A stretch of 64,000 nt of DNA from the NCBI GenBank assembly GCA_937991945.1, contig CALKLO010000034.1:19270-83269 (forward strand). Reading direction: 5' to 3'. Positions 1-28,738 of this stretch are shown here, piece after piece (positions within the stretch are counted from its first letter, which is position 1; every line of letters begins with the position of its first letter). The stretch comes from an uncultured Granulosicoccus sp. (GTDB lineage: Bacteria > Pseudomonadota > Gammaproteobacteria > Granulosicoccales > Granulosicoccaceae). Under the pieces are notes generated by a model. That model was not told where the DNA came from and did no database searches. It was given only the letters and a program-made list of their open reading frames with translations. Both the position numbers and the translations under genes were made by a program.

Positions 1-342
1 TTCGTGGGTGCAGAAGCCGTAAATGCTGGCTTAGCGGACTACACAGGGACTCTAGACGAGATCTTGGGCGGAGACTTTGCGCAAACTAAAACCTCAAAAT
101 TACCCAGCACCATCGGAGCTCATATGAACACTAAAAGCACGACACAAACAGCGGTTGATGATTCCGCCGACATCTGGAACCACTCCTCCGCTAAAGAAGT
201 TGAGACCGAGCAAGTTGCAGAAACAGAATTCGACACCAACGCTGCGCTATATGAATTATTGCCTGAATCCTCGTTAGAAGAATCTGACTCAGATGACGAT
301 GACGACTCTGCAAATGTTTGGGATCAATACGCAGCGCGGTAA
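1..342 (+). CDS. S49 family peptidase (SppA/phage head-maturation protease-like), C-terminal part, 5'-truncated by the window edge
   Basis: Frame is open from base 1. FVGAEAVNAGLADYTGTLDEIL matches the S49 C-terminal G-x-x-A-(V/I)-x-x-G-L-A-D motif, followed by an acidic low-complexity tail. Catalytic residues are not visible. Confidence 0.6.
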   Translation, partial: FVGAEAVNAGLADYTGTLDEILGGDFAQTKTSKLPSTIGAHMNTKSTTQTAVDDSADIWNHSSAKEVETEQVAETEFDTNAALYELLPESSLEESDSDDDDDSANVWDQYAAR

Positions 343-401
343 AGAGCAAAAATGGGGTTGGCGAACACTGTGACGGTTGATACAGCCCTGGGGTGCTGTT
401 C

Positions 402-458
402 ATGGCGAGAATGCTCAGTCTCCAGAGCAATAGGGTATCCAAAATTCTCGCCATTTTT
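402..458 (+). terminator. Stem-loop/terminator between the convergent S49 and SIR2 genes
   Basis: Perfect 11-bp inverted repeat ATGGCGAGAAT (402-412) / ATTCTCGCCAT (444-454) followed by a T run. Confidence 0.5.
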
Positions 459-502
459 CATTAGAATTCAGAAGTGCTCTTGTTAACGCCAATCTGCTGC
501 CT

Positions 503-2284
503 TTAGAATCGCTCTTGGCGTCGATGGTACTTCAGATTCAAAATGAAAAGCTCCAAAATGCGACGGCATTGATTTGACAAACCAGCCATTTGCAATTCTT
601 CGATAAGCGTTTCACTTTCAAACTCTGCAATGAGTGCATTCCCTATGTCATAGGAACATACAGCATGGCCCAATGGCATCCACTCAATTTGCTCGTTGGC
701 TAGATGCCTGGCTTCCATGGTCGGAAGATCGGAGCCTACAAAATGCATGAAGGCACCAATTAATTCGAACCGTGCAAATAGGATCTGGAAATTAGGATCT
801 GTTCCAACAAAATGTGGCGACCATGCTTGTATGGCACCTGATAGATGCATATTAAATGGTATTTTTTTCGTGTTCTTTGAAAACTTGGGTAGTAGGTTCC
901 ATACACTTTTTTCACCTCCGCTCCATGCCCCAGGAAATAACTTAAATACTTTTGAGTCTCTTTCTTGATGGCTAGACTTTAAGTTGTGCAAGAGTAACCG
1001 ATGCAATGCTTCCCATTTATGCGCTGTTACTAATCCCAGGCAGTAAGTTGACAGTAACAATACTGCGGGATAGGCACCGAGACGCTTGAGCTGAACGAGA
1101 CCAGTGTTTTGCCTTTCCACCTGTTGCATCACAGCTTCAATTATATCGATAACTAAATGCTGTTCACTTTCGCCACCCCAGCGGCCGAGGATTCCGCACA
1201 TACAGGCTAGTGGCTCTGTACAGGCCTCGTAACGTGAAATTCTAACGGCTAATTCGTTAGCGTCTATTTTGTGGTTGTATTCGAATGCGTCATCGCTCAG
1301 GTGCGCTAACAAGCGTTGTTGTTCCTGTGCAAATAAATCATCTAGGTTAATTCTTTGCTCTTTAGACGCAATGTATTTTTTCGTAGAGTTAATCAACAGC
1401 TCGAGGCTTAACGGGTTGATTTTTGAGCTGTTCTGAATTGCTTCGACGCTTTCTTGTAAAGCGTGAAAGAAATCGTCAGCATTGGCGATTTCTACTTCTT
1501 TGGCTCTTCGAAGATCTGCTAGCGACTGAGCTTCTCCTATGAGCGGTCCCCGCGTAGTCCAATAAGTGGGATAACGTCTATTAGGTGCACGGGAAATCGC
1601 TGCTTTTAGAGCATGATCCCATTCACCCGACCAGCCACAGATAACCAATCCGAATTCGTCAAGGATGCGGTCAAGCAATTCGTTGTATTTATCTGGGTAG
1701 GCTGTTAATTCATCGTCTGTGTTTAGGATTCGTGCGTCTTTGTAGTCACCATGCAACTTAAATAGATAGCAACGACTGTGGGTGAGGGGGTCCGCACCTA
1801 GCAAAGTGTCCTCAGATGTTATTACGGTGGGTTCCACACCAGCATCACGGAGCGCTTTCTCCATGAGTCGGTCGAAATTAGTCGTCAGAATTACTCTTAC
1901 AAATCCGTCACTTACCAGCTTCGCGATGGCGTGATGAGCCTTGGTAGGTAGTTTTCTGCCTTCTTCTTTCTCCTCTTCAGACGGCTCAATGTAGCCTTCA
2001 AGAATCTTGCGACGTTCAGAAGCAGTTGTTGTTAATTCGTCGAGTAGTTGGGAATAGTTTGGTTCTTGGCCGAACTGATCTGTGTACCATTCATTCCAGT
2101 CAGTTTGCTCACCTTCACCTTTGGCCGTGGCGGCCTTCCTAACGAGATCTAGCGTTATGTCCCAGCCGGTAGGTATACCTGCAGACCTAGACACGCCGGA
2201 ACCTAGAAGCAGAGCATACACGCCCTTGTTTTCGTGCATGGAGAACGCGAGTTGAGTGGCATTGTCGTCCCTGAGTATGCTCAT
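503..2284 (-). CDS. SIR2-domain protein (SIR2_2-type predicted NADase) with an unassigned ~300-aa C-terminal region; candidate anti-phage effector
   Basis: LLLGSGVSRSAGIPTG (GxGxS), ILTTNFD and LFKLHGD sirtuin-fold motifs intact; 593 aa; located in a mobile element. Confidence 0.85.
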   Translation of the reverse strand: MSILRDDNATQLAFSMHENKGVYALLLGSGVSRSAGIPTGWDITLDLVRKAATAKGEGEQTDWNEWYTDQFGQEPNYSQLLDELTTTASERRKILEGYIEPSEEEKEEGRKLPTKAHHAIAKLVSDGFVRVILTTNFDRLMEKALRDAGVEPTVITSEDTLLGADPLTHSRCYLFKLHGDYKDARILNTDDELTAYPDKYNELLDRILDEFGLVICGWSGEWDHALKAAISRAPNRRYPTYWTTRGPLIGEAQSLADLRRAKEVEIANADDFFHALQESVEAIQNSSKINPLSLELLINSTKKYIASKEQRINLDDLFAQEQQRLLAHLSDDAFEYNHKIDANELAVRISRYEACTEPLACMCGILGRWGGESEQHLVIDIIEAVMQQVERQNTGLVQLKRLGAYPAVLLLSTYCLGLVTAHKWEALHRLLLHNLKSSHQERDSKVFKLFPGAWSGGEKSVWNLLPKFSKNTKKIPFNMHLSGAIQAWSPHFVGTDPNFQILFARFELIGAFMHFVGSDLPTMEARHLANEQIEWMPLGHAVCSYDIGNALIAEFESETLIEELQMAGLSNQCRRILELFILNLKYHRRQERF

Positions 2285-2286
2285 AT

Positions 2287-2325
2287 CTAAAGATCTCTTC
2301 TAGCAGCTTTGTCTAGGTGGGTGCG
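2287..2325 (-). pseudogene. Remnant 3' end of a second RHH gene copy (RTHLDKAARRDL*) directly upstream of SIR2
   Basis: 2301-2325 matches 2878-2902 at 22/25 nt and all three differences are synonymous. The stop codon lies 2 nt before the SIR2 ATG. No in-frame ATG/GTG/TTG before the upstream stop at 2401-2403. Confidence 0.7.
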
Positions 2326-2425
2326 ATGATTCAGTCGCGTTTGTGATGTCGTTGAATTTACGTAGGCGGCATATAAGCGAATCTCAACGCAGCATGGTGA
2401 CTACGAGTATGCGAATCTGATTCCG

Positions 2426-2851
2426 TTATTCCAGATTAGTTAGAGTGGCAGTGTGCTCGTTCATGGATACGCTAATCGGATATTCAAATGCAGATCCGTC
2501 AGCAATGACACGTAGCCGCCACTTCTCGATATCGTGATTTTGGTTTGCAGTAATTAGCCCTTTTATTATTTGCTCAGAATCGATTTGCATGTAATCAAAA
2601 CCAGCGGCATCGTCGATAAAGTCTTTTACATCCTGTACACAGTGGCTATCTTGGTTTTTCACCTTGAGATTCTCGGTAATGTCAGTGCTAATCGTCGCTA
2701 CAGAATTTTCGATTTCAATTTCAGTAATTTTTATTTGTAAGTCATGCCAGCTTCCATGACCTTTCCGCATGCGAAAATAAGCTAATTCCGGGCCTTTCTT
2801 CAAGGGTTTTTTCATTAAAACAATCTCCATTCGGGGGCCCTGACCGATCAT
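2426..2851 (-). CDS. Hypothetical protein (141 aa), mobile-element cargo
   Basis: ORF starts 6 nt after the RHH stop on the same strand; no recognisable motif. Confidence 0.6.
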   Translation of the reverse strand: MIGQGPRMEIVLMKKPLKKGPELAYFRMRKGHGSWHDLQIKITEIEIENSVATISTDITENLKVKNQDSHCVQDVKDFIDDAAGFDYMQIDSEQIIKGLITANQNHDIEKWRLRVIADGSAFEYPISVSMNEHTATLTNLE

Positions 2852-2857
2852 GCCAGG

Positions 2858-3052
2858 TCACTTACTCAATTCACGTGTAGCAGCTTTATCCAAGTGGGTG
2901 CGTACCCAGTCCGCTCTAGACTGACGTGTTTTCGCAGCTGCTTGGTCGTAGCTGGCAATTTGCTCTTCAGTGACTCTCACCGACCCAAGAGACTTGCTGG
3001 CAGGGTTTAGGCTTGGTGGCCGCCCAGGCTTCTTTTTGCTTTGTATTGGCAT
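2858..3052 (-). CDS. Ribbon-helix-helix DNA-binding protein (64 aa), probable repressor
   Basis: MPIQSKKKPGRPP...SVRVTEEQIASYDQAAAKTRQSRADWVRTHLDKAA: GRP arm, alternating beta-strand, then two helices. The ATG at 3052 is preferred because the longer ORF-track start runs through the promoter. Confidence 0.7.
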   Translation of the reverse strand: MPIQSKKKPGRPPSLNPASKSLGSVRVTEEQIASYDQAAAKTRQSRADWVRTHLDKAATRELSK

Positions 3053-3070
3053 CCGAGAATGATAACAAAC

Positions 3071-3127
3071 GCATATGCATAAATATATGCATTTATTATT
3101 GACTGCTATATATGCATATGCAACAAT
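3071..3127 (+). promoter_or_regulatory. Rightward sigma70 promoter overlapped by (AT)GCAT-based palindromic operators
   Basis: TTGACT (3099-3104)-17 bp-AACAAT (3122-3127). Palindromes GCATATGC 3071-3078, ATGCAT 3075-3080 and 3087-3092, TGCATATGCA 3113-3122. Confidence 0.6.
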
Positions 3128-3235
3128 CAATTCACTGGTCAAGGGTAAGGACCAAGAAACGGCAAGAAGTGGCCCGCTAAGGAGTGCAATCCAAAGCAGG
3201 CCGACGCCACAACTAACCTCACTAAGGATTTAGTT

Positions 3236-3421
3236 ATGACAAATCGCATTATACAGGCGTTCTCACGTGCACTTAATGACGCAGTTTCACACCTACTTCA
3301 ATACGAGGAGAAGTTGCCAGCAATCTTTATATCAGTGGTCATGGCCTCTATTGGGTTGGTTAGTATCGACAGTGCAATTGCAGTAATCGATATCAGTCAC
3401 TCTATTGGAGCCACGGCATGA
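3236..3421 (+). CDS. Small hypothetical protein (61 aa) with a hydrophobic segment
   Basis: AAGGA RBS upstream; ATGA overlap with the next ORF; lies downstream of the predicted promoter. Confidence 0.55.
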   Translation: MTNRIIQAFSRALNDAVSHLLQYEEKLPAIFISVVMASIGLVSIDSAIAVIDISHSIGATA

Positions 3422-3855
3422 ATAACAAAGACAACAATTTACAAAAAGACGGCGCTAAATCAAATAAAGTACAGCAGCCCTTAATGGGAATACGTCCTGA
3501 CATGGATTTAGAGTCACGAGATGACTGGCAACACTCCGACGCTTTGTACATTGACAAGTTCTTAATGAGAGCGTTTACAGCATCTACTCAGGAAGAAGCG
3601 CGAAATGCCAAAGACGGTTTATACAGCCTGCAGGAACAATGCCTTCTACACATGAGGTCTTTATCCGAGCTGGAAACAGTTCTTCGTAAGTACCAGGACA
3701 AGATTGGCTACGACCACGACGAGGTGGCATTCAATGAATTGATGTCGTTTCTATCAAGCGTGGGTGCCAGTCTGGCAGGCGTAACCCATCAGCTAGGTTT
3801 TACGTATGCTTTGAGCGAGGTGCAGGGGGCTGGCCGAGAGGGTGCAGGCGGCTAG
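3418..3855 (+). CDS. Hypothetical helical protein (145 aa)
   Basis: ORF coupled to the previous one; GGAG RBS; no recognised motif. Confidence 0.6.
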   Translation: MNNKDNNLQKDGAKSNKVQQPLMGIRPDMDLESRDDWQHSDALYIDKFLMRAFTASTQEEARNAKDGLYSLQEQCLLHMRSLSELETVLRKYQDKIGYDHDEVAFNELMSFLSSVGASLAGVTHQLGFTYALSEVQGAGREGAGG

Positions 3856-4069
3856 GTGCAATTGTCTGTTGAGGGCAAGTGCTAATATTAAACGGCGATT
3901 TATGGGGCTGTGTAGACTGCACGGCAGCAATAATGCCACCCCCGGTGTCGGCTGCAGCCCTTATGAATGCTGGGGATGTCGGGTATGTCGAAGTATCCAG
4001 CTATTTTTCGTTGAGGTCGGCTTTCCAGGATCGCTGAATGGGGTAGGGATGCTAAGCCTTAGCGTTTTC

Positions 4070-4624
4070 TCAAAAGAAAAACACATATACACCGGCTGAG
4101 CCCGCAATTAAAAATGGCAATAAGTAGTCTGTGGCTAAGGGCGAATTGATCACAAAACGGTTTATCGCGCACACATAGATACTTATTGCTTGGTGGGCGG
4201 TAATCCGAAATTCAGGCCTTGATAGTTCACTGCTGCTATCAGGTGTTTTTAAGTGGAAGCCTGCGCTGCCGCTATAACCAACAGAGTTGTAAACAGTTCC
4301 GCCTCGCACGTCGTAATTGCTTTTGTCTATTACTTTCTGGATGGAAACTGAAACATGTGCATACCAGCGGTGCCGCAATCCTAGCTCTGAGTCATAAAAG
4401 TACTGCCAGTAACGCAATAATGCGTAAAACCAAAGTAGACCTAATGTTTTTTTTACGACGTCAGGATTTTCGATTTCAGCAACCAAGCCGATCAAGTTAA
4501 GCTGGGTAAACTTAAATTCGCCGAGGTTCACCACGACGATAGCAAGACAAGCTAGCAGTAGGTTTCTGCGTTGCCGAAGTAGGCCTGGAGGGATTTCGTG
4601 CTCTTTCCTGGCGTGACCTGACAT
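4070..4624 (-). CDS. Hypothetical membrane protein (184 aa, about 3 TM segments)
   Basis: Hydrophobic stretches after RQRRNLL, around LLWFYALLRYWQYF, and at the C-terminus; located at the element end. Confidence 0.7.
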   Translation of the reverse strand: MSGHARKEHEIPPGLLRQRRNLLLACLAIVVVNLGEFKFTQLNLIGLVAEIENPDVVKKTLGLLWFYALLRYWQYFYDSELGLRHRWYAHVSVSIQKVIDKSNYDVRGGTVYNSVGYSGSAGFHLKTPDSSSELSRPEFRITAHQAISIYVCAINRFVINSPLATDYLLPFLIAGSAGVYVFFF

Positions 4625-4676
4625 TTTGATCCAAAATTTAACTACAAAAAGGTGTAACTAAATTCTCACTCAGAAC

Positions 4677-4712
4677 AACCCTGAAACTGTAGTTAACCCT
4701 AAAGTTAACCCT
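4677..4712. repeat. Direct repeats near the att junction (possible integrase arm-type sites)
   Basis: AGTTAACCCT at 4691-4700 and 4703-4712 (12-bp period); third AACCCT at 4677-4682. Confidence 0.55.
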
Positions 4713-4793
4713 TGGCGGGAAATTTGATTCTAAGCAGGAGTCCCGCTATACGAAGCAAGTGCATATTGCACTTGTATAGCAGGAAAAAGTAAG

Positions 4794-4869
4794 TGGCTCC
4801 CTGGGACGGGCTCGAACCGCCGACCCAATGATTAACAGTCATTTGCTCTACCAACTGAGCTACCAGGGA
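4794..4869 (-). tRNA. tRNA-Asn (anticodon GTT)
   Basis: Reverse complement TCCCTGGTAGCTCAGTTGGTAGAGCAAATGACTGTTAATCATTGGGTCGGCGGTTCGAGCCCGTCCCAGGGAGCCA: 76 nt, cloverleaf, TTCGA T-loop, encoded CCA. Confidence 0.97.
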
Positions 4870-12657: not shown

Positions 12658-12805
12658 CGCTTCAGGCGACAGAGTTTGACGAGGCAATGCGCCAAAGTAG
12701 GGCGTTAAACGGGGGTGTTTACTATGATTTTTAGTTCTGCCTCAGCTTTGCTTGTGGCATAGATATAGGTAGACTTACCCGCCCCCTAACTCCGAATCTA
12801 TTTAT

Positions 12806-13648
12806 ATGCTCAGCCTTTTAAGAACTTGGCTGTTGGACCCCGCAGCACTGCTGTTTATTGCGTCCATAATTGTCGGGCTTATTCTGGTTAAATCCTCCAG
12901 AAATAGACTTCGGCGTAGGTCGGCGGGTTTTAAAACAGTGCGAGGGCGCTTTTCTCTGAACAGGCGAGATGTCGTTTCATTCAGAGCGATGATAATTCTG
13001 TGTGTCTGGTTTCTTATGTTTGCGGTCGCCTCGTCGCCAATATTCGTCAATCCGTTGGTTAATATTCTTGAGAAGAGGCATGCATCGACGGAGAGCTGTG
13101 CCGTGGGTAGTCATGTTGTGCTGCTTAGCGGTGGCGTAAGTTCACGCGCAAGAACCAATGATCAATTTGATAAAATGTCCTACGCCACTTTTGTGCGTGC
13201 TACTGAGGCGTATAAAATAATTAGCCAGGAGCCCGAAGCTACGCTAATTATTTCTGGAGGAGAGCTGTTCAGAGTGGCCGAAGCTCGAGTCATCGGAACC
13301 TACTTTGAAAGTCTTGGCGTGTCTAAAGACAGGATGATCCTAGAGTCTAGGTCCAAGAATACGCATGAAAACGCTGTAAGAGTTGCAGCTATTCTCGCTG
13401 ATGAAGACGTGGTAGGCCCAGTGCGTCTAGTGAGTTCTGCTATGCATATGCCGCGTGCCTTGGGCAGCTTTGAAAAGGCACTCGACGACACTGACGTGGA
13501 CCTATGCCCCGTCAGTGTCGATTTTTTAGGGATCGACCGAATGTTATGGTTCGGATGGGTGCCGCAAGTTACGGCACTCGTCAAATTTGATCACCTAATC
13601 CACGAAGTTGTTGCGTTAGTGGTTTACCGCTTTAAAGGTTGGCTCTAA
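12806..13648 (+). CDS. YdcF/ElyC (DUF218) family membrane protein
   Basis: [36 protein letters not shown] near the C-terminus; N-terminal TM segments. Confidence 0.9.
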
Positions 13649-14652
13649 ACCTTGTAATACTCAAGATACCACTCGACAAATTTACCGATGCCTTCTTCAA
13701 CAGAAGTGTCTGGCTTATAGTTCACATCGCGAACTAAGTCAGACACATCGGCGTAGGTATCAGGCACATCACCGGCTTGAAGTGGCAGCAGATTTTTCTC
13801 AGCAGTACGATTAAGGCAAGACTCCAGAGTACTAATGTAGTGCTCTAGGTCTATTGGCTGATTGTTGCCAATGTTATAGATTCTGTACGGAGCAGAGCTT
13901 GTCGCTGGATCGGGTGCATTGCTGTCCCATTCGCTATTCGGTTTTGCTGGGTTATCAAGCGTTCTCATAACGCCTTCTACGATGTCTTCGACAAACGTAA
14001 AATCACGTTTGTGTTTGCCATAGTTGAAAACATCAATAGGCTTGCCTGCCAAAATATTTTTGGTGAACAAAAATAGGGCCATGTCGGGACGTCCCCAAGG
14101 ACCGTACACCGTAAAGAAACGCAGCCCAGTCGTAGGAAGATTAAATAAGTGGCTATAGGTATGCGCCATGAGCTCATTCGCTTTTTTGGTCGCTGCGTAC
14201 AAGCTTACCGGGTGATCCACAGACTCGTGCACACTGAACGGCATGTTGGTGTGGTTGCCGTATACAGAGCTTGTTGATGCGTACACCAAATGCTCTACGC
14301 CAGTGTGACGGCAGTTTTCTAAAACGTTGGTGAAACCCGTGACATTGGCATCAATGTAGGCTTGTGGGTTCTCAAGTGAGTAGCGAACACCTGCTTGCGC
14401 GGCTAGGTTGACCACACGTTGTGGCTGATGCTTTTTGAAGGTCGCTTCCATTAGGTCGCGGTCTTCTAAGTTGCCTCGAACCTCGGTAAATCCAGCGTGA
14501 GCCTTAACGCGCTCAAGCCGGGCATGCTTCAAACTGACGTCGTAGTAGTCGTTTAAGTTGTCGATACCGATGACTTCATCGCCGCGCGCTAATAGTTTTA
14601 GAGCAAGCGTTGAGCCTATGAATCCGGCTGTGCCGGTTATAAGAATTTTCAT
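13645..14652 (-). CDS. NAD-dependent epimerase (UDP-glucuronate 4-epimerase type)
   Basis: [51 protein letters not shown]. Confidence 0.93.
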
Positions 14653-14672
14653 GGATTTAATGTTTTTGGCAA

Positions 14673-15953
14673 TTAGAGTCGTGCGTCAACGGAGTCTTTT
14701 GGCAGTATGCTTTTAATGTCATAAAGCACATTTTCAGGCTTACCAAACTCGCGAATTGCATCTACACCGAGGGACACGAATTGTTCGTGTGCAACTGCGA
14801 GAATAATAGCATCGTAGTGATTTTTCTTTGGCTCTGAAACCGGTGTGATTCCGTATTCTCGCGTCGCTTCGGCAGGGTCAACCCAAGGATCGTATATATC
14901 GACGTTTGCATGATAATTTTCGAGTTCAGCAACGATATCGACGACGCGAGTGTTGCGAAGATCTGGGCAATTTTCTTTGAACGCCAAACCCAAAATTAGA
15001 ATGTTGGCACCAACAACGTGAACGCGACGTTTGGTCAGCATTTTAATGACTTGTTCCGCAACAAAGGCTCCCATGCCATCGTTTATTTGGCGCCCAGATA
15101 AAATCACCTGTGGGTAATACCCAATTTCTTGGGCTTTGTGCGTCAAATAGTATGGATCGACACTGATGCAGTGGCCACCAACAAGACCTGGCCGGAAATT
15201 AAGGAAATTCCATTTTGTACCAGCGGCTTCGAGCACCTCAAGCGTGTCGATACCAAGTCTGTCGAATATCAATGCCAGTTCATTAATAAGTGCGATGTTG
15301 AGATCACGTTGAGTGTTTTCAATGACTTTTGCAGCTTCAGCAACTTTGATCGAGCTAGCCAAATGAGTGCCCGCCGTAATAATGCGCTGATATAAAGCAT
15401 TAACTGCCTCAGCAACTTCAGGTGTTGAACCTGATGTTACCTTCATGATGGTGCTAACCCGGTGTTCTTTATCGCCTGGATTAATACGCTCGGGGCTATA
15501 ACCTGCAAAAAAGTCTTGGTTGAAGACCATGCCAGATTCGCGTTCGAGGATAGGTATGCAGACCTCTTCTGTCGCTCCCGGATACACCGTTGACTCATAA
15601 ATCACAACCGCGCCTGATTTCATCACTCGACCAATGGTCTCGCTGGCTTTGACGAGAGGCGTCAAATCGGGCTGTTTGTGACTATTAATAGGTGTTGGAA
15701 CTGTGACGATGAATACTTTGCAATCGGCAAGGTCTGCAGGGTCACAGGTGTAGCTGATGTGTTCTGCCTCAGCCATCTCCTCTTTAGAGACTTCGAGAGT
15801 GCGGTCGTGACCTTTCTGTAATTCTGAAATTCTTGTCTCGTGGATATCGAAACCGATAGTCGGACTGCCTTTACCGAATTCGACCGCGAGGGGTAGGCCC
15901 ACGTAGCCCAGTCCGATTACTGCGATTTTATCGCTAACACCGATTGTAAACAT
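14673..15953 (-). CDS. tviB: UDP-N-acetylhexosamine C6-dehydrogenase (TviB/WbpO type)
   Basis: [51 protein letters not shown]. Confidence 0.88.
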
Positions 15954-16246
15954 TGAGTCGACAGATCCCGTCGTTGAGTTTGAGATGACATCATAAGTCC
16001 GCGAGATGATCTCGCGGGCACACGATTATAAACAACTGTATACGTTATGCCGTAGGAACGATTGTTCCGGAGGGTTCAGTGTTATGTTACTTGTCGTTGA
16101 CGCCAAACCCTATTCAGCCGAACAGGTTATACAGGGGTATCGGCTGGGATGCGAAAAACTGCGACGCTTAGTGTGCAAAGAGCGAGTCAGATCTCAATCT
16201 GACTCGGGCATTTTATTTGCTATGACACTGTGAGACGGGGTTACTG

Positions 16247-16852
16247 CTACTTAGGATCGGCAATAAATACGCCTTTTGAGCGAGCGCGGCGAATTTCTTC
16301 AGGTGTGGGTATGAATTCGCTCTGAGGTGCTTCTCGTAAAACCTGTTGGCCCCTTTGTCGGGCTTGCTGGTTTGTTTTCTTATCTAATATGAAGAATAGG
16401 ACGATGGTAGAAAAAATTACAATACAGGCGGTTAAGCCCCAGATAATTTTTCTGGTGGAGTGTGGCAGCCAGCGTCCTTTGTCAGGATCATCGTCGTCGT
16501 CTCGGGCGAGTGTGCTTGAGTCTAAATCGTTGCGTTTCACTTCACCTGCAGTTTTCGTAGGTTCATCGTGGGACGAATTCAGCTCTGCGTCAGGTCTGTC
16601 TTCTTGACGGTCTATATTTTCAAACGGGAGCCTGCCATGCAACCTCTGGAATTCCTTAAGATTATTGTACGATTTAGTCAGCGCAATAAACTGTTTTTGA
16701 GCTTGTTGTCTTTCTCGAGGTTTATCAGCATATCGGTCTGGATGCCAAATATGCACGAGCTTTTGATACTTCGCTCGAGCTGACTTCCAGTTTGCCGAAT
16801 TACTGAGTTTGAGGACGAGATAGTCCTTATTGAAATCGTCTGGTTCATTCAT
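16247..16852 (-). CDS. J-domain protein with a C-terminal transmembrane helix
   Basis: YLVLKL...YQKLVHIWHPDRY...FIALTKSY J-domain with HPD intact; hydrophobic helix IIWGLTACIVIFSTIVLFFIL. Confidence 0.85.
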   Translation of the reverse strand: MNEPDDFNKDYLVLKLSNSANWKSARAKYQKLVHIWHPDRYADKPRERQQAQKQFIALTKSYNNLKEFQRLHGRLPFENIDRQEDRPDAELNSSHDEPTKTAGEVKRNDLDSSTLARDDDDDPDKGRWLPHSTRKIIWGLTACIVIFSTIVLFFILDKKTNQQARQRGQQVLREAPQSEFIPTPEEIRRARSKGVFIADPK

Positions 16853-17146
16853 GTCTGTCAGCTTACCGTCCGTTAACCCTTTAAATTGTTGGAACCTAGG
16901 ATAATTGTCCGGCTCGAAAGAAGGACATCCTTTATTGAGGTGCGGGAAACATACACACTCTAGTTAGTGTGTAACGGCAGACCCCGTGTGAAGATTATAT
17001 ATTTAAGTATGTTAGCGTTAAATCAAGTGTTTTCGCAATCAGCCGCTAGCACTGTTCAGATTAAATAGTATTTTTGCTACACGTCAGTGCTTGTGACGTG
17101 TTCAACAGTTTGACTTAGTTCACGTGTCTTGGAGGCCAATGGATCA

Positions 17147-17770
17147 ATGAACGCACTGCGTATTGTTACACTACTGTTAGTTTGCACTTTAGCTGCATGC
17201 GGTGGGACTCGTGGTCCTTTGGACCAAGATGAACGTCCACCAGAACAAACCCGTGCTGTCGTTCCGGAGTTTCGCTTGGGCGCTGGAGACATTATTAGCG
17301 TAAGTGTATGGAAAAACCCAGATTTGACGGCGCGAGTGCCTGTCAGACCAGACGGATTTGTTTCTTTGCCGCTCGCAGGAGAGGTTGTTGCAGGCGGCCG
17401 AACACCCGCTGAGATTGCAAGGGACACCGAGCAGAAGTTGGCTCAATTTATACGTACGCCCAAAGTGTCGGTCATCATTGAGGAAATTCCCAGTGCTGAG
17501 TTCAAGAACCGTGTTCGCGTAGTCGGCGGTGTGGCAGAGCCTAAGTCGATCTCCCACAGAGAAGGTATGACGGTTATTGACTTGGTTTTGGAAGGGGGGG
17601 GCACTAACGAATTTGCTTCACCTAACGCGACAAAGCTGTACCGAACCATTGATGGGGTCGCTCGAGTCTTTGATATTTATTTAGACGACATATTGTCACG
17701 AGGCTTGCTAGATACTAACTATCCGTTGATTCCAGGCGACGTAATAACAATTCCGGAACGTCGGTTCTAG
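17147..17770 (+). CDS. Polysaccharide export OPX (Wza-family) lipoprotein, short form (XrtA/PEP-CTERM-associated type)
   Basis: Lipobox LAAC; GAGDIISVSVW...VRPDGFVSLPLAGEV Poly_export signature; one SLBB domain; ends GDVITIPERRF. Confidence 0.9.
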   Translation: MNALRIVTLLLVCTLAACGGTRGPLDQDERPPEQTRAVVPEFRLGAGDIISVSVWKNPDLTARVPVRPDGFVSLPLAGEVVAGGRTPAEIARDTEQKLAQFIRTPKVSVIIEEIPSAEFKNRVRVVGGVAEPKSISHREGMTVIDLVLEGGGTNEFASPNATKLYRTIDGVARVFDIYLDDILSRGLLDTNYPLIPGDVITIPERRF

Positions 17771-17839
17771 ACGAATAACAAATTTTTGTATTGGTGTGAA
17801 TGATTCACATGCAGCTACATTGAAGAAGCCACAAAATTT

Positions 17840-19408
17840 ATGAGTAATATAACGTTAGACGAGATGTTGCCACTGCTCAAGCGAGAAGCTTTCTCGCGCA
17901 GTGGTACTTTGCTCGCAATGTTCGTCGGTATTAGCCTGGTGTTCATGGTTATCGGCGCTGGATGGGAGAAAAAATACACCTCCTATGTCCAGCTGTACGT
18001 CGATGATCGTAACTTAGTTGGGCCGCTGCTAGACACGGTCCGAACCGCCAACCTAGACCAAGTGAAACTTGCAAAGCAAGAACTTTTTGCAAACGATATC
18101 CTTGATCAGGTTCTAGAAGGGGTTGGCTTAGCTGACGAAAATACAAACCCTGTCGAACGCGAAGAGCTGCGTGACGAACTGGTCGATGCTACTAGCGTGT
18201 TTAATCGAAGTAACCAGTTGTTGGAAATTGAATTCTGGAATGAAGATCCGCAAATGGCGTTCGAGACAACCAGCTTGTACGCTGAGTTGTTCCTGAAAAA
18301 GACAATGGCCTCAACTAATGTTGAGACGACGGAAGCGTTTGAATTTATTATCGATCAAGTTGAAACCTATAGAACCAAACTGGAAGATGCCGAACAACGA
18401 TTAGAGGATTTTCGTAACGATAATCCTGGTGTCAGTATGGAAGACGGTGGCGACGTAACGGCCAGAATTATCGAGCTGCAACGCGATTACGAGCAAACGT
18501 CTTTACTGTATGCGCAAGAGAGACAAACTCAAAAATCGCTACAAGCAGAATTGGCTAATGAGTCTTCGACCATTGCTCGCGACTTTCAGGTTAGTCGAGC
18601 TCGTGAACAAATTGCTGCATTGCAAGCTGAAATCGATGTGCTAAGCCTTTCGTACACAAATGACTACCCGGATATCATTCGCCTCAGGCAGCAAATTGAA
18701 GATGTCAAAACTCTGGCTGAATCCGAAGCATCACAACCCGCTGACACTGCTCCATCCTCAGTAAACATTAATGGGCGATTATGGAACTCTCCAGCTAACT
18801 TAAGCCCGGTCTATCAGCAATTACGCAGCGAAATGGCTAGAGCGGGTGCTGAGGCAGACGCACTGCAATCTAGACTTCGCCAAATTGATGTTTTAATCGA
18901 AAAAGAAATAGCCCGCTCTGAGTCGTCCTCGAAAGTTGAGCGTACTCTGAATGATTTGAGCCGCGATTATGAGATCAATAAAGAAATATTCGAAGAGCTG
19001 CTGAAGAAGCAAGAAAGCGCACGAATCACCATGACATTGGGTAGTGAGCAACAAGGCGTGCTTTACCGCGTTCAACAGAAAGCGAGCTTTCCGGTAAGGC
19101 CCAATGGGCTTCGCTTTTTACATGTGGTCCTACTAGGCCTTGTACTTGCAGCGACGTTACCCTTTGTTTATCTGATTGTATTTCTTAAGCTGGATCCAAG
19201 GATTCGGACAGGATCATCTGTCACAGATTTATTGGAATTACCTTTACTCACCGTTGTGCCTCATATGCGATCACCGAAGGAATCTGTTCCGTACTTTAGA
19301 CGGCCATCCGCTATTTTAGCGACGGTAGCTGTTGTCTGCGGCATGTACGTTGTGGTGTATCTATTGAAGCTGGCGTTTGAGGCGAGCAATACCGGAGCTG
19401 TACTATGA
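17840..19408 (+). CDS. Polysaccharide co-polymerase / chain-length determinant (Wzc N-terminal-like, no kinase domain)
   Basis: N-terminal TM, long periplasmic coiled coil, YPDIIRLR motif, C-terminal TMs and PLLTVVP. Confidence 0.88.
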   Translation: MSNITLDEMLPLLKREAFSRSGTLLAMFVGISLVFMVIGAGWEKKYTSYVQLYVDDRNLVGPLLDTVRTANLDQVKLAKQELFANDILDQVLEGVGLADENTNPVEREELRDELVDATSVFNRSNQLLEIEFWNEDPQMAFETTSLYAELFLKKTMASTNVETTEAFEFIIDQVETYRTKLEDAEQRLEDFRNDNPGVSMEDGGDVTARIIELQRDYEQTSLLYAQERQTQKSLQAELANESSTIARDFQVSRAREQIAALQAEIDVLSLSYTNDYPDIIRLRQQIEDVKTLAESEASQPADTAPSSVNINGRLWNSPANLSPVYQQLRSEMARAGAEADALQSRLRQIDVLIEKEIARSESSSKVERTLNDLSRDYEINKEIFEELLKKQESARITMTLGSEQQGVLYRVQQKASFPVRPNGLRFLHVVLLGLVLAATLPFVYLIVFLKLDPRIRTGSSVTDLLELPLLTVVPHMRSPKESVPYFRRPSAILATVAVVCGMYVVVYLLKLAFEASNTGAVL

Positions 19409-20274
19409 GCGACCAATCAAAGGCTGCCAATATCCGGTCTATGCTGAATCAGCAGCCGGGTAAGACATCTCGTCGGGCTCTGAAAAGTGGGCACTCGCTG
19501 GTTCCTGGTGCGCCAAAAAAGCGAAACAGTACTCAGCTTCGGGCCGCAAACGATAATGTCAGTCTTGCGGATCGTGCGAAGGCTGATATCGCAAACATGC
19601 AGGACGAAAGGCTGTTTAGTGATAGACAGCTCGATTTGCTAGGTATTGTCCATCCCCGCTCCAAAGACAGAGCGATGGTCGATGCAATGCGTCAGCTACG
19701 TACCAAGCTTTATAGCCTGAAGCCAGAAGGTAACTTCAGTGTTTTAATTAGCTCTGTTGTTCCTGAGGGTGGTGGTAGTTTCATCAGCTTAAATCTTGCT
19801 GCGACTATCGCGTTTGATAAGGCAAGAACGGCCATGCTAGTAGAGGCTAATTTGCATTCTCCTATCATGCACAAATTGATGAAGCTTATTGGGCAAGAAC
19901 ATTCTGCTGGATTGCTTGAGTACCTCGAACGACCAGAGCTAGGTGTTGAGCACATTGTTAACCCAAGTGGTATACCGCGAATGAGATGTGTACCTATTGG
20001 TCGGCATCAAGAAATCAGTGCTGAGCATTTCACGAGTGCTCGTTACAAGCAATTCATGCTGGATATAAAAGAGCGTTATGACAACCGATTTGTCATCGTA
20101 GATGGACCTTCAATGACCACATCTGCGGATGCGCGAATTTTGTCTGAAGTGTGTGATTTTACGGTTCTCGTCGTTCCTTATGGTGGCGTAACACCTGGCA
20201 CATTGGATCTAATTATCGACGAAATTGATGAGCGCAAGCTTGCTGGTGTTGTCATTAACAACGAACCAGTCTGA
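19405..20274 (+). CDS. Stand-alone BY-kinase-like (CpsD/CapB family) protein, predicted pseudokinase
   Basis: RQLRTKL, ISSVVPEGGGSFISLNLA (Walker A position lacks Lys), LVEANLHSP, VIVDGP; no C-terminal Tyr cluster; ATGA overlap with the PCP gene. Confidence 0.8.
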   Translation: MSDQSKAANIRSMLNQQPGKTSRRALKSGHSLVPGAPKKRNSTQLRAANDNVSLADRAKADIANMQDERLFSDRQLDLLGIVHPRSKDRAMVDAMRQLRTKLYSLKPEGNFSVLISSVVPEGGGSFISLNLAATIAFDKARTAMLVEANLHSPIMHKLMKLIGQEHSAGLLEYLERPELGVEHIVNPSGIPRMRCVPIGRHQEISAEHFTSARYKQFMLDIKERYDNRFVIVDGPSMTTSADARILSEVCDFTVLVVPYGGVTPGTLDLIIDEIDERKLAGVVINNEPV

Positions 20275-20318
20275 TCGCAATCCGCGTTCATACTATTTAA
20301 CCGACAGATCATTTCATC

Positions 20319-21764
20319 GTGAAGACAACAGACTACCGACGCTCAACATTATTTCTTGCGCTTCTAGTCAGCACTAGCTTCGGTGAAGTTAACGCGTTAG
20401 AAGTTGGGTTTGAAGGATCCGTTTCCTACGACTCGATTCAATCAACGGACAATACGGCTCTTTTTGGAGAGCAAGACTCTGAATTGAACCTCGGTATTGC
20501 GCAAATTACTGTCTTCGGTGAACAACGGACCCGAGCATTAAATGCCGGTTTTTCGGGGGAGTTTGAAACCCGAACAGGCTTCGAAGATGAAGACGACACG
20601 GTAAACACTGTCACACGTTTCACGGGCTCCGCTGATGTAGCGCTGTCGGCTCAATCCTTACGCTGGTATTTCGGTAACGTCCTCACCGGTGTGCGTAATG
20701 AAGATTCGGTGCGTATAGCTGATGATCTAAATCAGTTCTCGCGAAATATATTTATGACAGGTCCCACATACCGATCCACTACGGAAGGGTTTGGGACCAC
20801 TGAAGCTAGACTCTTCTATGTCAATCAGACACAAGAAGATGAAAACTTAGAAACGCTTTACAGTTTTTCTGCCAGTCATCAGCGTGAAACAACTATCGGT
20901 AGTTTTTACGGTATACGTTTTAACGATATTTACACCGATGAACCCGATACCTTTAGTGCGGATCCCACCGTGGCAGATCAAATTGGTGAAGATATTAATC
21001 GCATAACGGTGTCTATTTTTAATAACCGAGCCAGAGAATTAACTGGGCTGTATACAGAGTTAGGGGCTACGCGCTATCAAACTGACGATGAAGAGGTTGA
21101 TGGTCTGACGGCAATTGTTCGGGGTTCGCTTACGATGGGCCCAGAGACGACGCTGACTGCTGAGATCTCACACAGCCTAAACGATCAAACAATTAGGACA
21201 GTCGATGTGCTACTTGAGGGTGGTGGGGACGACGACGGGTTACAACCCGGAGCTAACGGTATCTTCGCTGAAACACGCTTCGATATTGGTTACAGTATTA
21301 ATAGACCCGTGTCAGAGATTGAGTTCTCTTTGAGTGTGGCACAACTAGATTACAGGCTTCTTACTGGTAACTCAGTTATTACCACAGACGCAGATTCTCA
21401 GGATCAGTACCAAGGCACAGTGGAGGCTACCTACGCTAGGCGTTTTGGTAGTCGTATTAATACAGCTCTATCAACCGCCTATGAGCGTGAAGAATTCATT
21501 AACCAACCGGCCTACACCGATGCAATTCTTTTTAGCGCTGAGCTGAATTACACATTAACGCGGACACTTTCGCTTGAAATGTCAGTTATTTACGATGCCG
21601 CTGAAGGGGTACGAAGTCAGGTAGTGGCAGCAAATGGTGCAGTAGCTAGTTTCAATGCTTTTCCCGTGGATGAGACGCAAACTCGGGCTTCGATTGGTAT
21701 TCGTTGGGCACCACCTTCACGAGCTGAACGTGGAATGGGTACTGGGCTAGTTTCTTTGCAGTAG
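20319..21764 (+). CDS. Outer-membrane beta-barrel protein associated with polysaccharide export
   Basis: Signal peptide, alternating-polarity strands rich in Y/F/G/T, last strand ASIGIRW; position in the EPS operon. Confidence 0.7.
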   Translation: MKTTDYRRSTLFLALLVSTSFGEVNALEVGFEGSVSYDSIQSTDNTALFGEQDSELNLGIAQITVFGEQRTRALNAGFSGEFETRTGFEDEDDTVNTVTRFTGSADVALSAQSLRWYFGNVLTGVRNEDSVRIADDLNQFSRNIFMTGPTYRSTTEGFGTTEARLFYVNQTQEDENLETLYSFSASHQRETTIGSFYGIRFNDIYTDEPDTFSADPTVADQIGEDINRITVSIFNNRARELTGLYTELGATRYQTDDEEVDGLTAIVRGSLTMGPETTLTAEISHSLNDQTIRTVDVLLEGGGDDDGLQPGANGIFAETRFDIGYSINRPVSEIEFSLSVAQLDYRLLTGNSVITTDADSQDQYQGTVEATYARRFGSRINTALSTAYEREEFINQPAYTDAILFSAELNYTLTRTLSLEMSVIYDAAEGVRSQVVAANGAVASFNAFPVDETQTRASIGIRWAPPSRAERGMGTGLVSLQ

Positions 21765-21913
21765 CTTAGTGCAATCCAGAGCAGGAGGGCATCTTTGAAA
21801 AATGCATTGATGCTGACGACAATGCCGACGTTGTAATTTTTGTGTTTCGTCAGCCTGTCGAAACCAACGATTCTAAAAACTGGCTTTTGCCAACAGTGAA
21901 CTTATAAGCGCAA

Positions 21914-23131
21914 ATGCATAATCCTTCGAGCGGTAGCATGATTAATGACTCTGATGAGAGCCTCAGCTTAGCGGCTAACGAGGCAAGCCCGACGTCGGGC
22001 GAACCTCGATTAGATGGCTTACGTATCTTGTTCGCCGTAGATTGCGAATTTCCTGGGCTGGGTGGTGCGGAAGCTCAGGCGTTGAAATTAGCTATCTCTA
22101 TGCGCAACCGAGGCGCATTCGTAGAATTTGTCACGCCTCGAATTTTAGACACGCAAAGCCTGGAAGAAACATTCCATGGGTTCACGATTCATCGAGTGGA
22201 TTATCCGCATGTACGATGGGTGGGTTCGCTGGTTTTGATGGCTTATTTCGCCCGTTACCTAATAAAAAATGCAGAGCGCTTTGATGCGGTTCATGTGCAC
22301 ATTACACACCTGATGGCAGCTACTGCAGGATTTGTAAGAGCTAAGACTGGGTTGTCTGTTACGACTAAAATATCTGGCTTTTATGAATTTGAAGGCGGTG
22401 TTCTAGATCAACGAAATCGCTTCAAGCCTCTTAATTTTTTTCTACGTCAAGGATTAGGCAAGGTAGATTTTGTACAAACCATCAGTGAGCAAACGCGCGA
22501 AAAATTGTTAGAAGCTAACTTCCGTGATGAACAAATACGATTTATTCCGAACGGAATCGACACGGTAGAGGCTCCAGTGGTTCGTGAGACGCCTGAAACC
22601 TTAGTGGTCGGGTATTGCGGCCGATTGCGAGAAGTAAAAGGCGTTCATGTTCTACTAGATGCCGTTGCAGAAGTGCTGAAGCGTCGACCCGATGCAAAAT
22701 TTAAAGTGTCGATTGCGGGTAGTGGTAGCAGTGAAAATGAACTCTTAGCTCAAGCAGAAACTTTAGCCATTACTGATTACATTGAATGGTTAGGCTTGAT
22801 TGAAGATACACAATCGTACTTTCGATCTATAGATATTTATATTCAGCCTTCGTTTGCTGAGGGTCTGCCCAATTCGGTAATGGAAGCTATGGTTGAACAA
22901 AAACCTGTCATAGCCTCTGATATTGGCGGCAACAATGATTTGGTTACCCATGAGATTTCAGGTCTGCGGTTTCCTGCAGGGGACTCTCAAAAATTAGCTG
23001 ATCATTTGTTACGCATGATTGATGAACCCGAGTTGCGTCAGTCGCTTGCCGTAGCTGGTAGGCAACTCATAGAGCAACGATATGATATTGAAAGAGTAGT
23101 GACTAAATTGACGGAGCTCTATCGTGTCTAA
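21914..23131 (+). CDS. Glycosyltransferase family 4
   Basis: GGAE, FIPNGID, GRLREVKG, PSFAEGLPNSVMEAM, SDIGG. Confidence 0.93.
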   Translation: MHNPSSGSMINDSDESLSLAANEASPTSGEPRLDGLRILFAVDCEFPGLGGAEAQALKLAISMRNRGAFVEFVTPRILDTQSLEETFHGFTIHRVDYPHVRWVGSLVLMAYFARYLIKNAERFDAVHVHITHLMAATAGFVRAKTGLSVTTKISGFYEFEGGVLDQRNRFKPLNFFLRQGLGKVDFVQTISEQTREKLLEANFRDEQIRFIPNGIDTVEAPVVRETPETLVVGYCGRLREVKGVHVLLDAVAEVLKRRPDAKFKVSIAGSGSSENELLAQAETLAITDYIEWLGLIEDTQSYFRSIDIYIQPSFAEGLPNSVMEAMVEQKPVIASDIGGNNDLVTHEISGLRFPAGDSQKLADHLLRMIDEPELRQSLAVAGRQLIEQRYDIERVVTKLTELYRV

Positions 23132-24050
23132 AATAGAAGACATTATTGTTACGGTTTCAATAGACACCGAGTGTGACCACGATGTCAATTGGGTTCGATC
23201 AAAGCCATTGGCTTTTGAATCTATTACAGAGGGCGTACCTAATCGCTTACAGCCGGCATTTGAAGAAGTCGGTGCGGTTCCAACATACTTACTAACCGTA
23301 GAGGTTATGGAAGATGAGGCAAGTGTCCAGGCGTTGAAAGATTTAAAGGGGCAATATGAGTATGGAACTCATTTGCATGCAGCCTTTATTGAGCCTGAGA
23401 AAAAATTCTATGACTATGCGGGTATCGATAGTCCTGATTTTCAATGCAGTTACGCGCCGGAAATAGAGTTTCAAAAGTTAGAGAATTTGACCAACCTCTT
23501 TGAGCAGCGATTTGGCTATCGCCCTACGAGCTTTCGTGCGGGTCGTTACGGAGCCTCTGCAGACTCGATCAATAGTTTGGAGCGTTTAGGGTATAAAGTC
23601 GATACAAGTGTGACGCCACACTTGAGATGGACGGAACCCAACGCTACCGTAGATTTTCGATCAGCACCTGAGCAACCGTATTTTCCTGCCGCAAATAAAA
23701 TTTCTGAGGCTGGGCCTTACTCGCCAACAAGAATATTAGAAGCTCCCGTTACTGTAAAGCCACGATTGTTTCGAGATCCTCGCTGGTTTCGACCATGGTT
23801 TGCATCGGTTGATCAGATGAAAGACATTTTCCGGTATCAATTGAAAAAACACAGCGATAAAAAGGTTTTATCGATAAATATGATGTTTCATTCGATGGAA
23901 GTTATTGAGAAAGCATCACCGTACCCTCAAACACCCGATGACGTAAAACGCTACATAGATGACATGCAGCAAGCATTGCGGTGGTGTGGAGAGGAGGGCG
24001 CAAGGTTTGCTCCCATGTCTGATTTATACGACGCCTTTCAAGTGTCGTAA
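23124..24050 (+). CDS. Polysaccharide deacetylase (CE4, WalW-like)
   Basis: VSIDTECD, EYGTHLH, PTSFRAGRYG, MMFHS. Confidence 0.8.
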   Translation: MSKIEDIIVTVSIDTECDHDVNWVRSKPLAFESITEGVPNRLQPAFEEVGAVPTYLLTVEVMEDEASVQALKDLKGQYEYGTHLHAAFIEPEKKFYDYAGIDSPDFQCSYAPEIEFQKLENLTNLFEQRFGYRPTSFRAGRYGASADSINSLERLGYKVDTSVTPHLRWTEPNATVDFRSAPEQPYFPAANKISEAGPYSPTRILEAPVTVKPRLFRDPRWFRPWFASVDQMKDIFRYQLKKHSDKKVLSINMMFHSMEVIEKASPYPQTPDDVKRYIDDMQQALRWCGEEGARFAPMSDLYDAFQVS

Positions 24051-24079
24051 GGTGTAATGAATTTTTCAGAACCAACGCT

Positions 24080-25549: not shown

Positions 25550-25601
25550 TGTTTATTGTTCACTTTGGTTTGTCATCATGCGTTTACGTTAGGAGCTACT
25601 C

Positions 25602-28368: not shown

Positions 28369-28738
28369 CCCAATTGGCTGCGCTAGTCTTCTTTAACCCT
28401 GTACATTTCAGGTTAAACTCGTGACACTGCATTTCTGAGACGTACCTTACTTTGCTGTCTGGGTGCAGTCGACTATTCTTTCCCAAAGAGTGTCACCAGT
28501 CTCCTTTTAAGCAGCTCACCGAAGCTACACTTTTAACGCGCCGAAGGGTAAGTTAACCGTGTCAGGTTCTTTGGTTTCGAACAATTGAGTTACGTAAATC
28601 CGGCACCATGTTAATGGGGTACGAAAATTGCGATTGTTCGTCCAAGCGTGATCGTGACACTTCTCTTTCGTTTTACACGTATCAGTGATTGGCAGAGTCT
28701 TAAGTTTGGCCAATCGATCTCGCGGAATATTTTGATTC

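Follow-up and report, generated by a model that had tools for sequence, protein, structure and literature searches.

A SIR2 protein of the candidate defence family PDC-S65, encoded on a satellite-like island of an uncultured Granulosicoccus, carries a helical C-terminal domain that is reused with other effectors

The subject of this study is a gene encoding a SIR2 protein, located at positions 503..2284 (minus strand) of a 64,000-nucleotide stretch of DNA from an uncultured Granulosicoccus sp. (contig CALKLO010000034.1), which is referred to below, at its full length, as the window. We assigned this gene to PDC-S65, one of the phage defence candidate (PDC) families of PADLOC, and found that the C-terminal domain of its product (the C-domain) also occurs behind TIR, caspase and ParA-like domains in other proteins. 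We propose, with a probability of roughly 60%, that the product is a single-polypeptide abortive-infection defence protein, in which the C-domain acts as the recognition module of a predicted SIR2 NAD+ glycohydrolase (NADase) and the perception of a trigger leads to depletion of NAD+.

According to this model, the C-domain would keep the SIR2 effector silent before infection. In an infected cell it would bind a phage-derived cue, most likely a protein, and the resulting conformational or oligomeric change would switch the NADase on; NAD+ would then be depleted and phage replication would fail. NADase activity, an anti-phage effect, the identity of the trigger and activation through oligomerisation are all inferred. 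The C-domain is regarded, on indirect grounds, as the recognition module because it stays constant while the effector is exchanged, because it diverges faster than the effector, because no other candidate sensor is encoded nearby, and because the effectors with which it is paired (SIR2, TIR and caspase) are of a kind activated by induced proximity or oligomerisation.

The gene and its SIR2 effector domain

The gene is complete: its open reading frame (ORF) starts with ATG, ends with the stop codon at 503-505 and encodes 593 amino acids (aa), and its full-length homologues are likewise ~593 aa long. The homologues number in the thousands and the best of them match over the full length (E down to 1e-247), which indicates that the gene is real. 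In the AlphaFold2 model built on an alignment of 44 full-length homologues (mean predicted local distance difference test score, pLDDT, of 82.9), the protein is of the alpha/beta Rossmann type up to approximately residue 287 and consists of helices only over residues 294-592. This agrees with the preliminary description of this DNA, in which the last ~300 aa had been judged to be mostly helical.

The N-terminal effector domain (residues 1-287; 1424..2284, minus strand) was recognized as a SIR2 domain (SIR2_2, Rossmann) by Pfam (PF13289), by the PADLOC model Aga_SIR2 and by Foldseek. Translation placed the glycine-rich NAD-binding loop GSGVS at residues 28-32 (2189..2203), the motif TTNFD with the catalytic-type Asn136 at residues 134-138 (1871..1885) and the motif KLHG with the catalytic-type His178 at residues 176-179 (1748..1759), all on the minus strand. 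These three motifs had been read as intact, and the alignment bears this out, with G28, S29, G30, T134, T135, N136, F137, D138, K176, L177, H178 and G179 invariant in the 44 sequences.

The only significant Pfam match was SIR2_2 (residues 131-260, E=4e-14, 53.2 bits vs a cut-off of 24.5). By sequence, the closest solved structures were those of the Sir2 subunit of SPARSA (8jkz, 8jl0 and 8in8; E=1.7e-10, over residues 116-248), in whose alignment TTNFD falls on TTNFD and KLHGD on KIHGD. A SPARSA Sir2 chain was also the best Foldseek match (8y80_E; E=3e-11, 326 aligned columns, 24% identity), followed by ThsA, KomC and DSR2; the SIR2-only chains of DSR2 gave target-normalised template-modelling (TM) scores of 0.67-0.70 and a root-mean-square deviation (rmsd) of about 4.5-4.8 Å. 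The SIR2 domains of SPARSA, ThsA, DSR2 and KomC are NAD+-consuming effectors of anti-phage systems, and we take Asn136 and His178 to correspond to their catalytic residues.

A classical sirtuin deacylase (CobB/Sir2) was also considered and ruled out: the NCBIfam CobB-type deacylase models scored 14-20 bits vs cut-offs of 243-395, Pfam PF02146 scored 14 bits vs a cut-off of 24, and the protein contains no zinc-ribbon CxxC motif. Since the best matches are SPARSA Sir2, KomC, ThsA and DSR2, since N136 and H178 are invariant, and since CxxC is missing, the domain can be placed within the group of defence NADases and is, judging from its sequence, a predicted NAD+ glycohydrolase effector.

Exchange of effectors on a common C-terminal domain

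When 1.84 billion cluster representatives were searched exhaustively with a profile of the C-domain, 1989 proteins were retrieved at E<=1e-3, including 138 at E<=1e-30. In a word-indexed search for homologues, the last 302 aa on their own gave no match, which must be an artefact of the index, since the exhaustive search finds so many representatives. The architectures of the best 150 of the 1989 matches were classified with local hidden Markov models (HMMs) of both halves of the protein, together with Pfam and PADLOC. The majority of the full-length members in this set are SIR2 + C-domain proteins, in which the C-domain starts at residue 283-295. The same approach identified a TIR fusion (P0143, 460 aa; TIR_2 at residues 12-125, C-domain at 163-458), a caspase fusion (P0265, 579 aa; Peptidase_C14 with an intact His/Cys dyad at 16-241, C-domain at 292-571), and a protein in which the C-domain (residues 337-644) is joined to a ParA/MinD-like P-loop domain resembling PDC-M28B (P0137, 645 aa).

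The gene of P0143 was found complete on three independent metagenome contigs, and at least five diverged relatives (P0270-P0273 and P0304) also combine TIR with the C-domain and lack a SIR2 domain. In its TIR domain, P0143 shares 60-75% identity with the many ~300-aa TIR proteins of one large family (P0276-P0378, PDC-S66-like according to PADLOC), but in its C-domain it shares only about 40% with the SIR2 + C-domain proteins. This is the signature of a module exchange, and the comparison therefore points to a probable, relatively recent transfer of an effector module between two candidate systems. The gene of the caspase fusion lies in the interior of an 82-kb contig. The ParA-like fusion is preceded by a gene for a 210-aa TIR protein, which overlaps its start by 4 nt, and thus represents a two-gene variant.

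Twelve residues are invariant across the SIR2, TIR, caspase and ParA-like fusions: K302, L314, R348, G395, L402, Y405, P406, L409, L465, P476, E507 and G539. The conserved N-terminal motif of the C-domain in the window protein is KKYIASKEQRINLDDL (1334..1381, minus strand; with K302, R311 and L314), and the segment LINSTKKYIASKEQRINLDDL starts, by translation, at residue 297 of the 593. The pattern K[KR/TE]Y..R[IV].L is present in every SIR2, TIR, caspase and ParA-like fusion compared. A region of the form K(K/R)Y(L/I)..RI.L.DL had earlier been proposed to follow other effector domains, and a swappable effector-sensor family had been suggested. The region was found after TIR, caspase and ParA-like ATPase domains, and the list of N-terminal domains on the one C-domain (SIR2, TIR, caspase and ParA-like) verifies the suggestion at the level of sequence architecture. 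In the papers found there was no description of the PDC-S65 C-domain or of its fusions to other effectors. Nor did the literature searched mention that TIR, caspase and ParA-like proteins share this domain, where an earlier description under another name is possible.

Stand-alone C-domain proteins of ~310-330 aa were not accepted as a separate architecture, as both cases inspected turned out to be pieces of split SIR2 + C-domain genes: in one, the C-domain ORF lies 44 nt after a 267-aa SIR2_2 ORF, and in the other an insertion sequence (IS) separates the two pieces. Nor was P0171 (a CagE/TrbE fragment with a truncated C-domain) counted, the first 55 profile positions being missing.

Fold and evolution of the C-domain

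The C-domain (residues 294-593; 506..1405, minus strand), for which we propose the function of a sensor or regulatory module, is all-alpha. Modelled alone with AlphaFold2 (residues 286-593), it is compact and consists of 17 helices (pLDDT 85.7, predicted TM score (pTM) 0.89). No Pfam family scored above its cut-off over this region; the sole hit touching it, bpX2 (E=0.097, 12.8 bits vs a cut-off of 23.6), extends across the domain boundary and was treated as noise. The most hydrophobic stretch, YPAVLLLSTYCLGLV (the YPAVLLL helix), is a conserved core helix with a maximum 19-residue hydropathy of 1.58. Membrane anchoring through this helix is not supported, given this value and the burial of the helix in a confident globular model.

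The two halves of the protein evolve at different rates. Mean pairwise identity in the family is 58% for the C-domain vs 81% for the effector, and the window protein is on average 37.5% identical to the other members in the C-domain vs 66% in the effector. Sizeable stretches of the C-domain are hypervariable. Such rapid change is what one would expect of a surface tracking the targets in phages.

A number of results weigh against our proposal. The C-domain has no recognizable relative, and its proposed role as the trigger sensor is suggested by the logic of the architecture. Foldseek of the C-domain vs PDB found no relative (best E=0.049, TM<=0.26, designed armadillo repeats), and neither did the search of the viral structures of BFVD (best E=0.24) or the comparison of the C-domain profile with PDB sequences (best E=0.13). 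The inter-domain geometry is uncertain (pTM of 0.54 for the full-length model), and the caspase and ParA-like fusions each come from one cluster. No known defence gene adjoins the SIR2 gene in the window (PADLOC), our literature search found no experiments on any member of the PDC-S65 family, and some of the PDCs that others have assayed failed to protect the hosts used against the phages used.

Because the structure and profile searches gave no neighbour, we conclude that the C-domain is not an APAZ, SLOG or DSR2 C-terminal domain. The APAZ reading was prompted by the similar length of the protein and by its closest SIR2 domain; APAZ has a mixed alpha/beta fold, and the all-alpha model together with the lack of any alignment past ~residue 282 rules it out. 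A DSR2-like C-terminal domain was ruled out since Foldseek with the C-domain model retrieves no DSR2 chain. Foldseek vs PDB also revealed no similarity to the SLOG, Macro, CARF and SAVED folds.

The dissimilarity to these four folds argues against a Thoeris- or CBASS-like function, in which the C-domain would receive a second messenger from an enzyme encoded elsewhere, and SIR2, TIR and caspase would be signal-activated effectors. Type I Thoeris does employ a SIR2 effector and type IV Thoeris a caspase, and at one locus, as described above, a TIR gene overlaps the start of the ParA-like + C-domain gene. However, the SIR2 + C-domain genes conserve no TIR, CD-NTase or cyclase gene in the 80 homologous loci surveyed (see below), none is present in the window or on the overlapping contig L001, and a fast-evolving helical domain of 300 aa would be atypical for a nucleotide pocket. 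We consider this explanation very unlikely.

The conserved positions of the C-domain allow yet another interpretation, namely that the domain is a guard or adaptor, which docks on a host protein or complex (or is a constitutive oligomerisation scaffold), the SIR2 domain firing when the phage modifies or destroys the host target. The motifs conserved in all fusions (K302, R348, G395, YPxxL at 405-409, E507 and G539) could form a fixed interface, and the lack of a partner gene nearby would fit a conserved host factor encoded elsewhere. This alternative is nevertheless unlikely in our opinion: the spread of the family on plasmids over Proteobacteria, Firmicutes, Actinobacteria and haloarchaea argues against dependence on a lineage-specific host partner, and large parts of the domain are hypervariable. 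We retain the view of the C-domain as the recognition module for a phage-derived cue.

Family assignment and comparison with known systems

A PADLOC run matched the protein over practically its full length to PDC-S65 (E=6.3e-208; residues 5-585 on profile positions 15-583 of 592). The family is represented by two profile HMMs, PDLC05061 and PDLC05060, the second of which scored E=3e-180. Weaker PADLOC matches (pAgo-associated SIR2, E=4e-28; ThsA; generic SIR2 models; LmuA) were confined to the SIR2 domain. The window gene is thus a member of PDC-S65, with which it shares the single-gene organisation and the location of homologues beside or within restriction-modification (RM) and other defence loci, and from which it shows no structural difference.

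The 145 PDCs were added to PADLOC as predictions, made from genes that lie inside loci of BREX, DISARM, type I RM and Hma (Payne et al. 2024 bioRxiv 10.1101/2024.01.29.577857). PDC-S65 is not among the candidates examined in the studies that assayed some PDCs, and no paper mentioning this name was found in the literature searched. The family is therefore catalogued but uncharacterised. The protein, whose C-terminal region had been called unassigned in the preliminary description, thus belongs to a family already listed. The same text had named a full-length match to an already described system as an argument against its own reading; a match of such extent was obtained, but what it identifies is only a predicted candidate.

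In its presumed mode of action the protein is most like DSR2/DSR1, with which it shares the design of a single polypeptide (SIR2 NADase at the N-terminus, helical and presumably sensing region at the C-terminus), the lack of a partner gene, and superposable SIR2 domains. It does not, however, belong to the DSR family. DSR proteins comprise about 1000 aa, including a middle domain and an alpha-solenoid C-terminus, and the 593 aa of the window protein are, as had been pointed out, much fewer; moreover, no PADLOC Dsr model matched it at E<0.1, and full-length superposition gave an rmsd of >20 Å. DSR2 is reported to sense the tail tube protein.

SPARSA offers the closest SIR2 domain in both sequence and structure, and a protein of nearly equal length (584-587 aa). 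The similarity nevertheless ends at ~residue 282 (the Aga_SIR2-PNTD models align with residues 14-282), the C-domain is all-alpha, and no pAgo gene was found in the window, on L001 or in the 80 loci. Thoeris ThsA also combines a SIR2 NADase effector with a C-terminal regulatory domain (Foldseek E ~1e-8; PADLOC ThsA E=1e-8, SIR2 part, residues 111-199), but the window protein lacks a SLOG domain, and its gene is not accompanied by one for ThsB/TIR. With SIR2-HerA (Nezha) and Avs5 (SIR2-STAND) it has in common the use of a SIR2 NADase as anti-phage effector; it differs in having no NTPase domain, either within the protein or in its neighbours, and no adjacent HerA or other ATPase gene. Sensing through a nucleoid-associated protein, as in PANGU, was ruled out, since PANGU depends on a conserved neighbouring gene, which is missing here.

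Genetic context and distribution of homologues

The surroundings of the 80 best homologous loci were surveyed by calling ORFs within 6 kb and clustering them. No neighbour family was present in more than 12 of the 80 loci, and the 12 loci with the commonest family share one whole conserved mobile segment, whose carriers include Afipia, Bradyrhizobium, Rhizorhabdus and Sphingorhabdus; eight further loci have a different element in common. The four ORFs adjoining the window gene have no counterparts in the 80 loci (tblastn). Neither a pAgo, HerA nor TIR gene is adjacent to the SIR2 gene in the window or in the 4.7 kb past its left end, and no pAgo gene is conserved across the 80 loci. In the absence of a pAgo, HerA, ThsB or NTPase partner, the SIR2 protein acts alone or with unlinked factors. 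The gene had been described as a stand-alone one, with TIR ThsB, HerA and pAgo not adjacent, and this description holds for the window copy and across the homologous loci.

Relatives of the gene occur sporadically and were detected in at least 360 of 185,579 species genomes, chiefly of alpha-, beta- and gammaproteobacteria; this one-genome-per-species scan was pattern-limited and the figure is a lower bound. Full-length homologues are carried by plasmids of Cupriavidus, Bradyrhizobium, Rubrobacter and Bacillus mycoides. Eight Halobacterium plasmids (NZ_CP038633.1, NZ_CP038632.1 and six more) encode a full-length SIR2 + C-domain protein (32.5% identity over residues 7-586), and the family thus crosses the boundary between bacteria and archaea. 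Phage genomes yielded only partial matches to the SIR2 domain, and one truncated copy was the only find in the viral contigs scanned with the C-domain.

Among 133 proteins encoded next to homologues, we recognized components of type I and III RM systems (REase_I, MTase/REase_III), HamA/HamB (Hachiman), LmuB (Lamassu), DrmD (DISARM), AriA (PARIS), PtuA (Septu), several other PDCs and HEC-01. The neighbours also included transposition proteins of IS21 and ISL3, a plasmid replication initiator, DUF932 and ICE genes (ICE, integrative and conjugative element). It had been anticipated that homologues located mainly in core-genome contexts would speak against a defence function; the plasmids, the IS and ICE genes and the RM and other defence neighbours indicate that this is not their main location.

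Transfer between genera is exemplified by a nearly identical segment of at least 12 kb (loci L064-L078), which carries the SIR2 + C-domain gene in Afipia, Bradyrhizobium, Rhizorhabdus, Sphingorhabdus, Hyphomicrobiaceae and Xanthobacteraceae, and is a mobile element. A 621-aa ORF lies 73 nt downstream of the gene in all 12 loci of this element.

Some copies of the gene are split into separate SIR2 and C-domain ORFs or interrupted by an IS: L009-L011 (5154-6945), L012 (3984-6984), L124 (5095-7432) and the copy on the Marinibacterium plasmid CP031591.1. An annotated transposase is present in the interruptions of L012 and CP031591.1; the L124 copy is cut off by an unannotated 326-aa ORF, and an IS there is a guess. 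The occurrence of several such copies suggests that the gene is costly and often inactivated.

A costly gene carried on islands, plasmids and IS-flanked segments, several copies of which are split or interrupted, and which in the window adjoins no known defence gene, might also have a function other than defence against phages. It could encode a toxin-like or regulatory sirtuin (an ADP-ribosyltransferase or a deacylase), involved in addiction, competition between elements or metabolic regulation. We regard this as rather improbable. The characterised members of the SIR2_2 class are the defence NADases of SPARSA, ThsA, DSR2 and KomC, with which the titles of the PDB entries agree, and the C-domain is common to TIR and caspase proteins, that is, to typical immune effectors. 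Furthermore, the homologues are often located beside defence genes, and no antitoxin-like neighbour is conserved in the 80 loci. An abortive-infection defence protein remains the reading that we prefer.

The island carrying the window copy

In the window, the SIR2 gene belongs to the cargo of a phage-satellite-like integrative island, which lies beside a tRNA gene and at whose end it is found. This is indicated by genes for AlpA, a P4-type primase, a repressor-like protein and a protease on one side, and by a tRNA-Asn gene followed by core genes on the other. The tRNA-Asn gene (anticodon GTT; 4794..4869, minus strand; ARAGORN, Rfam tRNA 67.5 bits) has its 3' end facing the island and is therefore the probable integration site and right border. 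Immediately beyond it lie the core genes uvrB and acnB, and further on an exosortase-A/PEP-CTERM polysaccharide locus, clpA and others. Defence genes are typically found in such a position.

The left part of the island was reconstructed from contig L001 (9.6 kb), which reaches 4.7 kb past the left end of the window; in the available data the island covers window positions 1-4869 and L001:4592-9523, with the integrase and the far attachment (att) site lying outside. On the downstream side of the SIR2 gene, and in convergent orientation, lies the 3' end (4..342, plus strand) of a gene for a 346-aa S49-type prohead-protease/scaffold-like protein, found in full on L001 (phrog_53, head-maturation-protease-like, E=4.5e-48). 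It is followed on L001 by small ORFs, a LexA-DNA-binding-type repressor-like gene, the gene of a P4/D5-type primase (phrog_864, E=5e-57) and that of an AlpA-type excisionase/regulator (phrog_66). The protease/scaffold-like protein ends in a very acidic C-terminal tail (…EESDSDDDDDSANVWDQYAAR), an arrangement that resembles that of lambda C/Nu3. No att repeat of the tRNA-Asn end was found within the 9.6 kb of L001, and scans with the island protease for related islands with variable cargo retrieved only phage proteases at 31-37% identity.

Between the SIR2 gene and the tRNA gene there are four further cargo ORFs: 2426-2851 (minus strand), 3418-3855 (plus strand) and 4070-4624 (minus strand, 184 aa), for which searches of Pfam, PADLOC, NCBIfam and PHROGs gave nothing significant, and the small ORF 2858-3142 (minus strand), for which this holds in Pfam, PADLOC and NCBIfam. 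The likely start of the latter is an internal Met, giving a product that begins with MPIQSKKKPGRPPSL… and has an AT-hook-like N-terminus (KKPGRPP); its C-terminal half appears, by reading only, to be of the ribbon-helix-helix type, with a weak match to VapB antitoxin (E=0.007). This product may regulate the 141-aa ORF downstream of it as well as the SIR2 gene, both of which lie on the same strand. Given the hydrophobic helices close to its N-terminus, the 184-aa product of 4070-4624 could be located in a membrane.

The lack of close relatives of the island backbone in the collections scanned, and the promoter and terminator scans, in which no signal rose above chance, would be compatible with an inactive relic on a decaying island. 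The ORF is nevertheless of full length and retains every residue that is invariant in the family, and the identical protein is encoded on at least five marine-metagenome contigs from several samples. It is thus highly improbable that the window copy is a relic.

The exosortase-A (XrtA)/PEP-CTERM-type exopolysaccharide locus mentioned above occupies approximately positions 12800-28400 of the window and belongs to the ordinary chromosomal equipment of this marine bacterium. It includes genes for a TviB-like UDP-GlcNAc 6-dehydrogenase (14673-15953), a chain-length determinant (17840-19408) and an O-ligase-like protein (26392-28368).

Conclusions

SIR2 NADases are a recurring immune effector; it is the sensor that differs between systems and decides which phages are seen. 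In the protein described here the effector logic is familiar and the family has already been flagged, while the C-domain is without a known relative. Nothing in our findings contradicts the current understanding of such systems.

Only tentatively do we suggest something more far-reaching, which may well prove wrong: that the C-domain constitutes an effector-agnostic module for recognition that has not been described before, with no solved fold relative, NTPase or partner, and that it drives SIR2, TIR or caspase effectors, or a ParA-like ATPase plus TIR in the two-gene form, through trigger-induced assembly on a conserved phage component. If this were true, bacteria and archaea would possess a new family of compact pattern-recognition proteins, which satellites and plasmids disseminate.

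The window copy provides an example of a PDC-S65 gene as cargo of a satellite-like island in a marine bacterium. Should protection be confirmed, one of the 145 candidates of PADLOC would become a validated system, and nature would have supplied a case in which effectors are swapped on a fixed sensor. Since the C-domain is shared by SIR2, TIR and caspase proteins, evolves faster than the effector and has spread to plasmids of Firmicutes, Actinobacteria and haloarchaea, the family lends itself to the search for a new phage trigger and a new activation mechanism, and offers a well-defined, testable entry point to a new trigger-recognition module.

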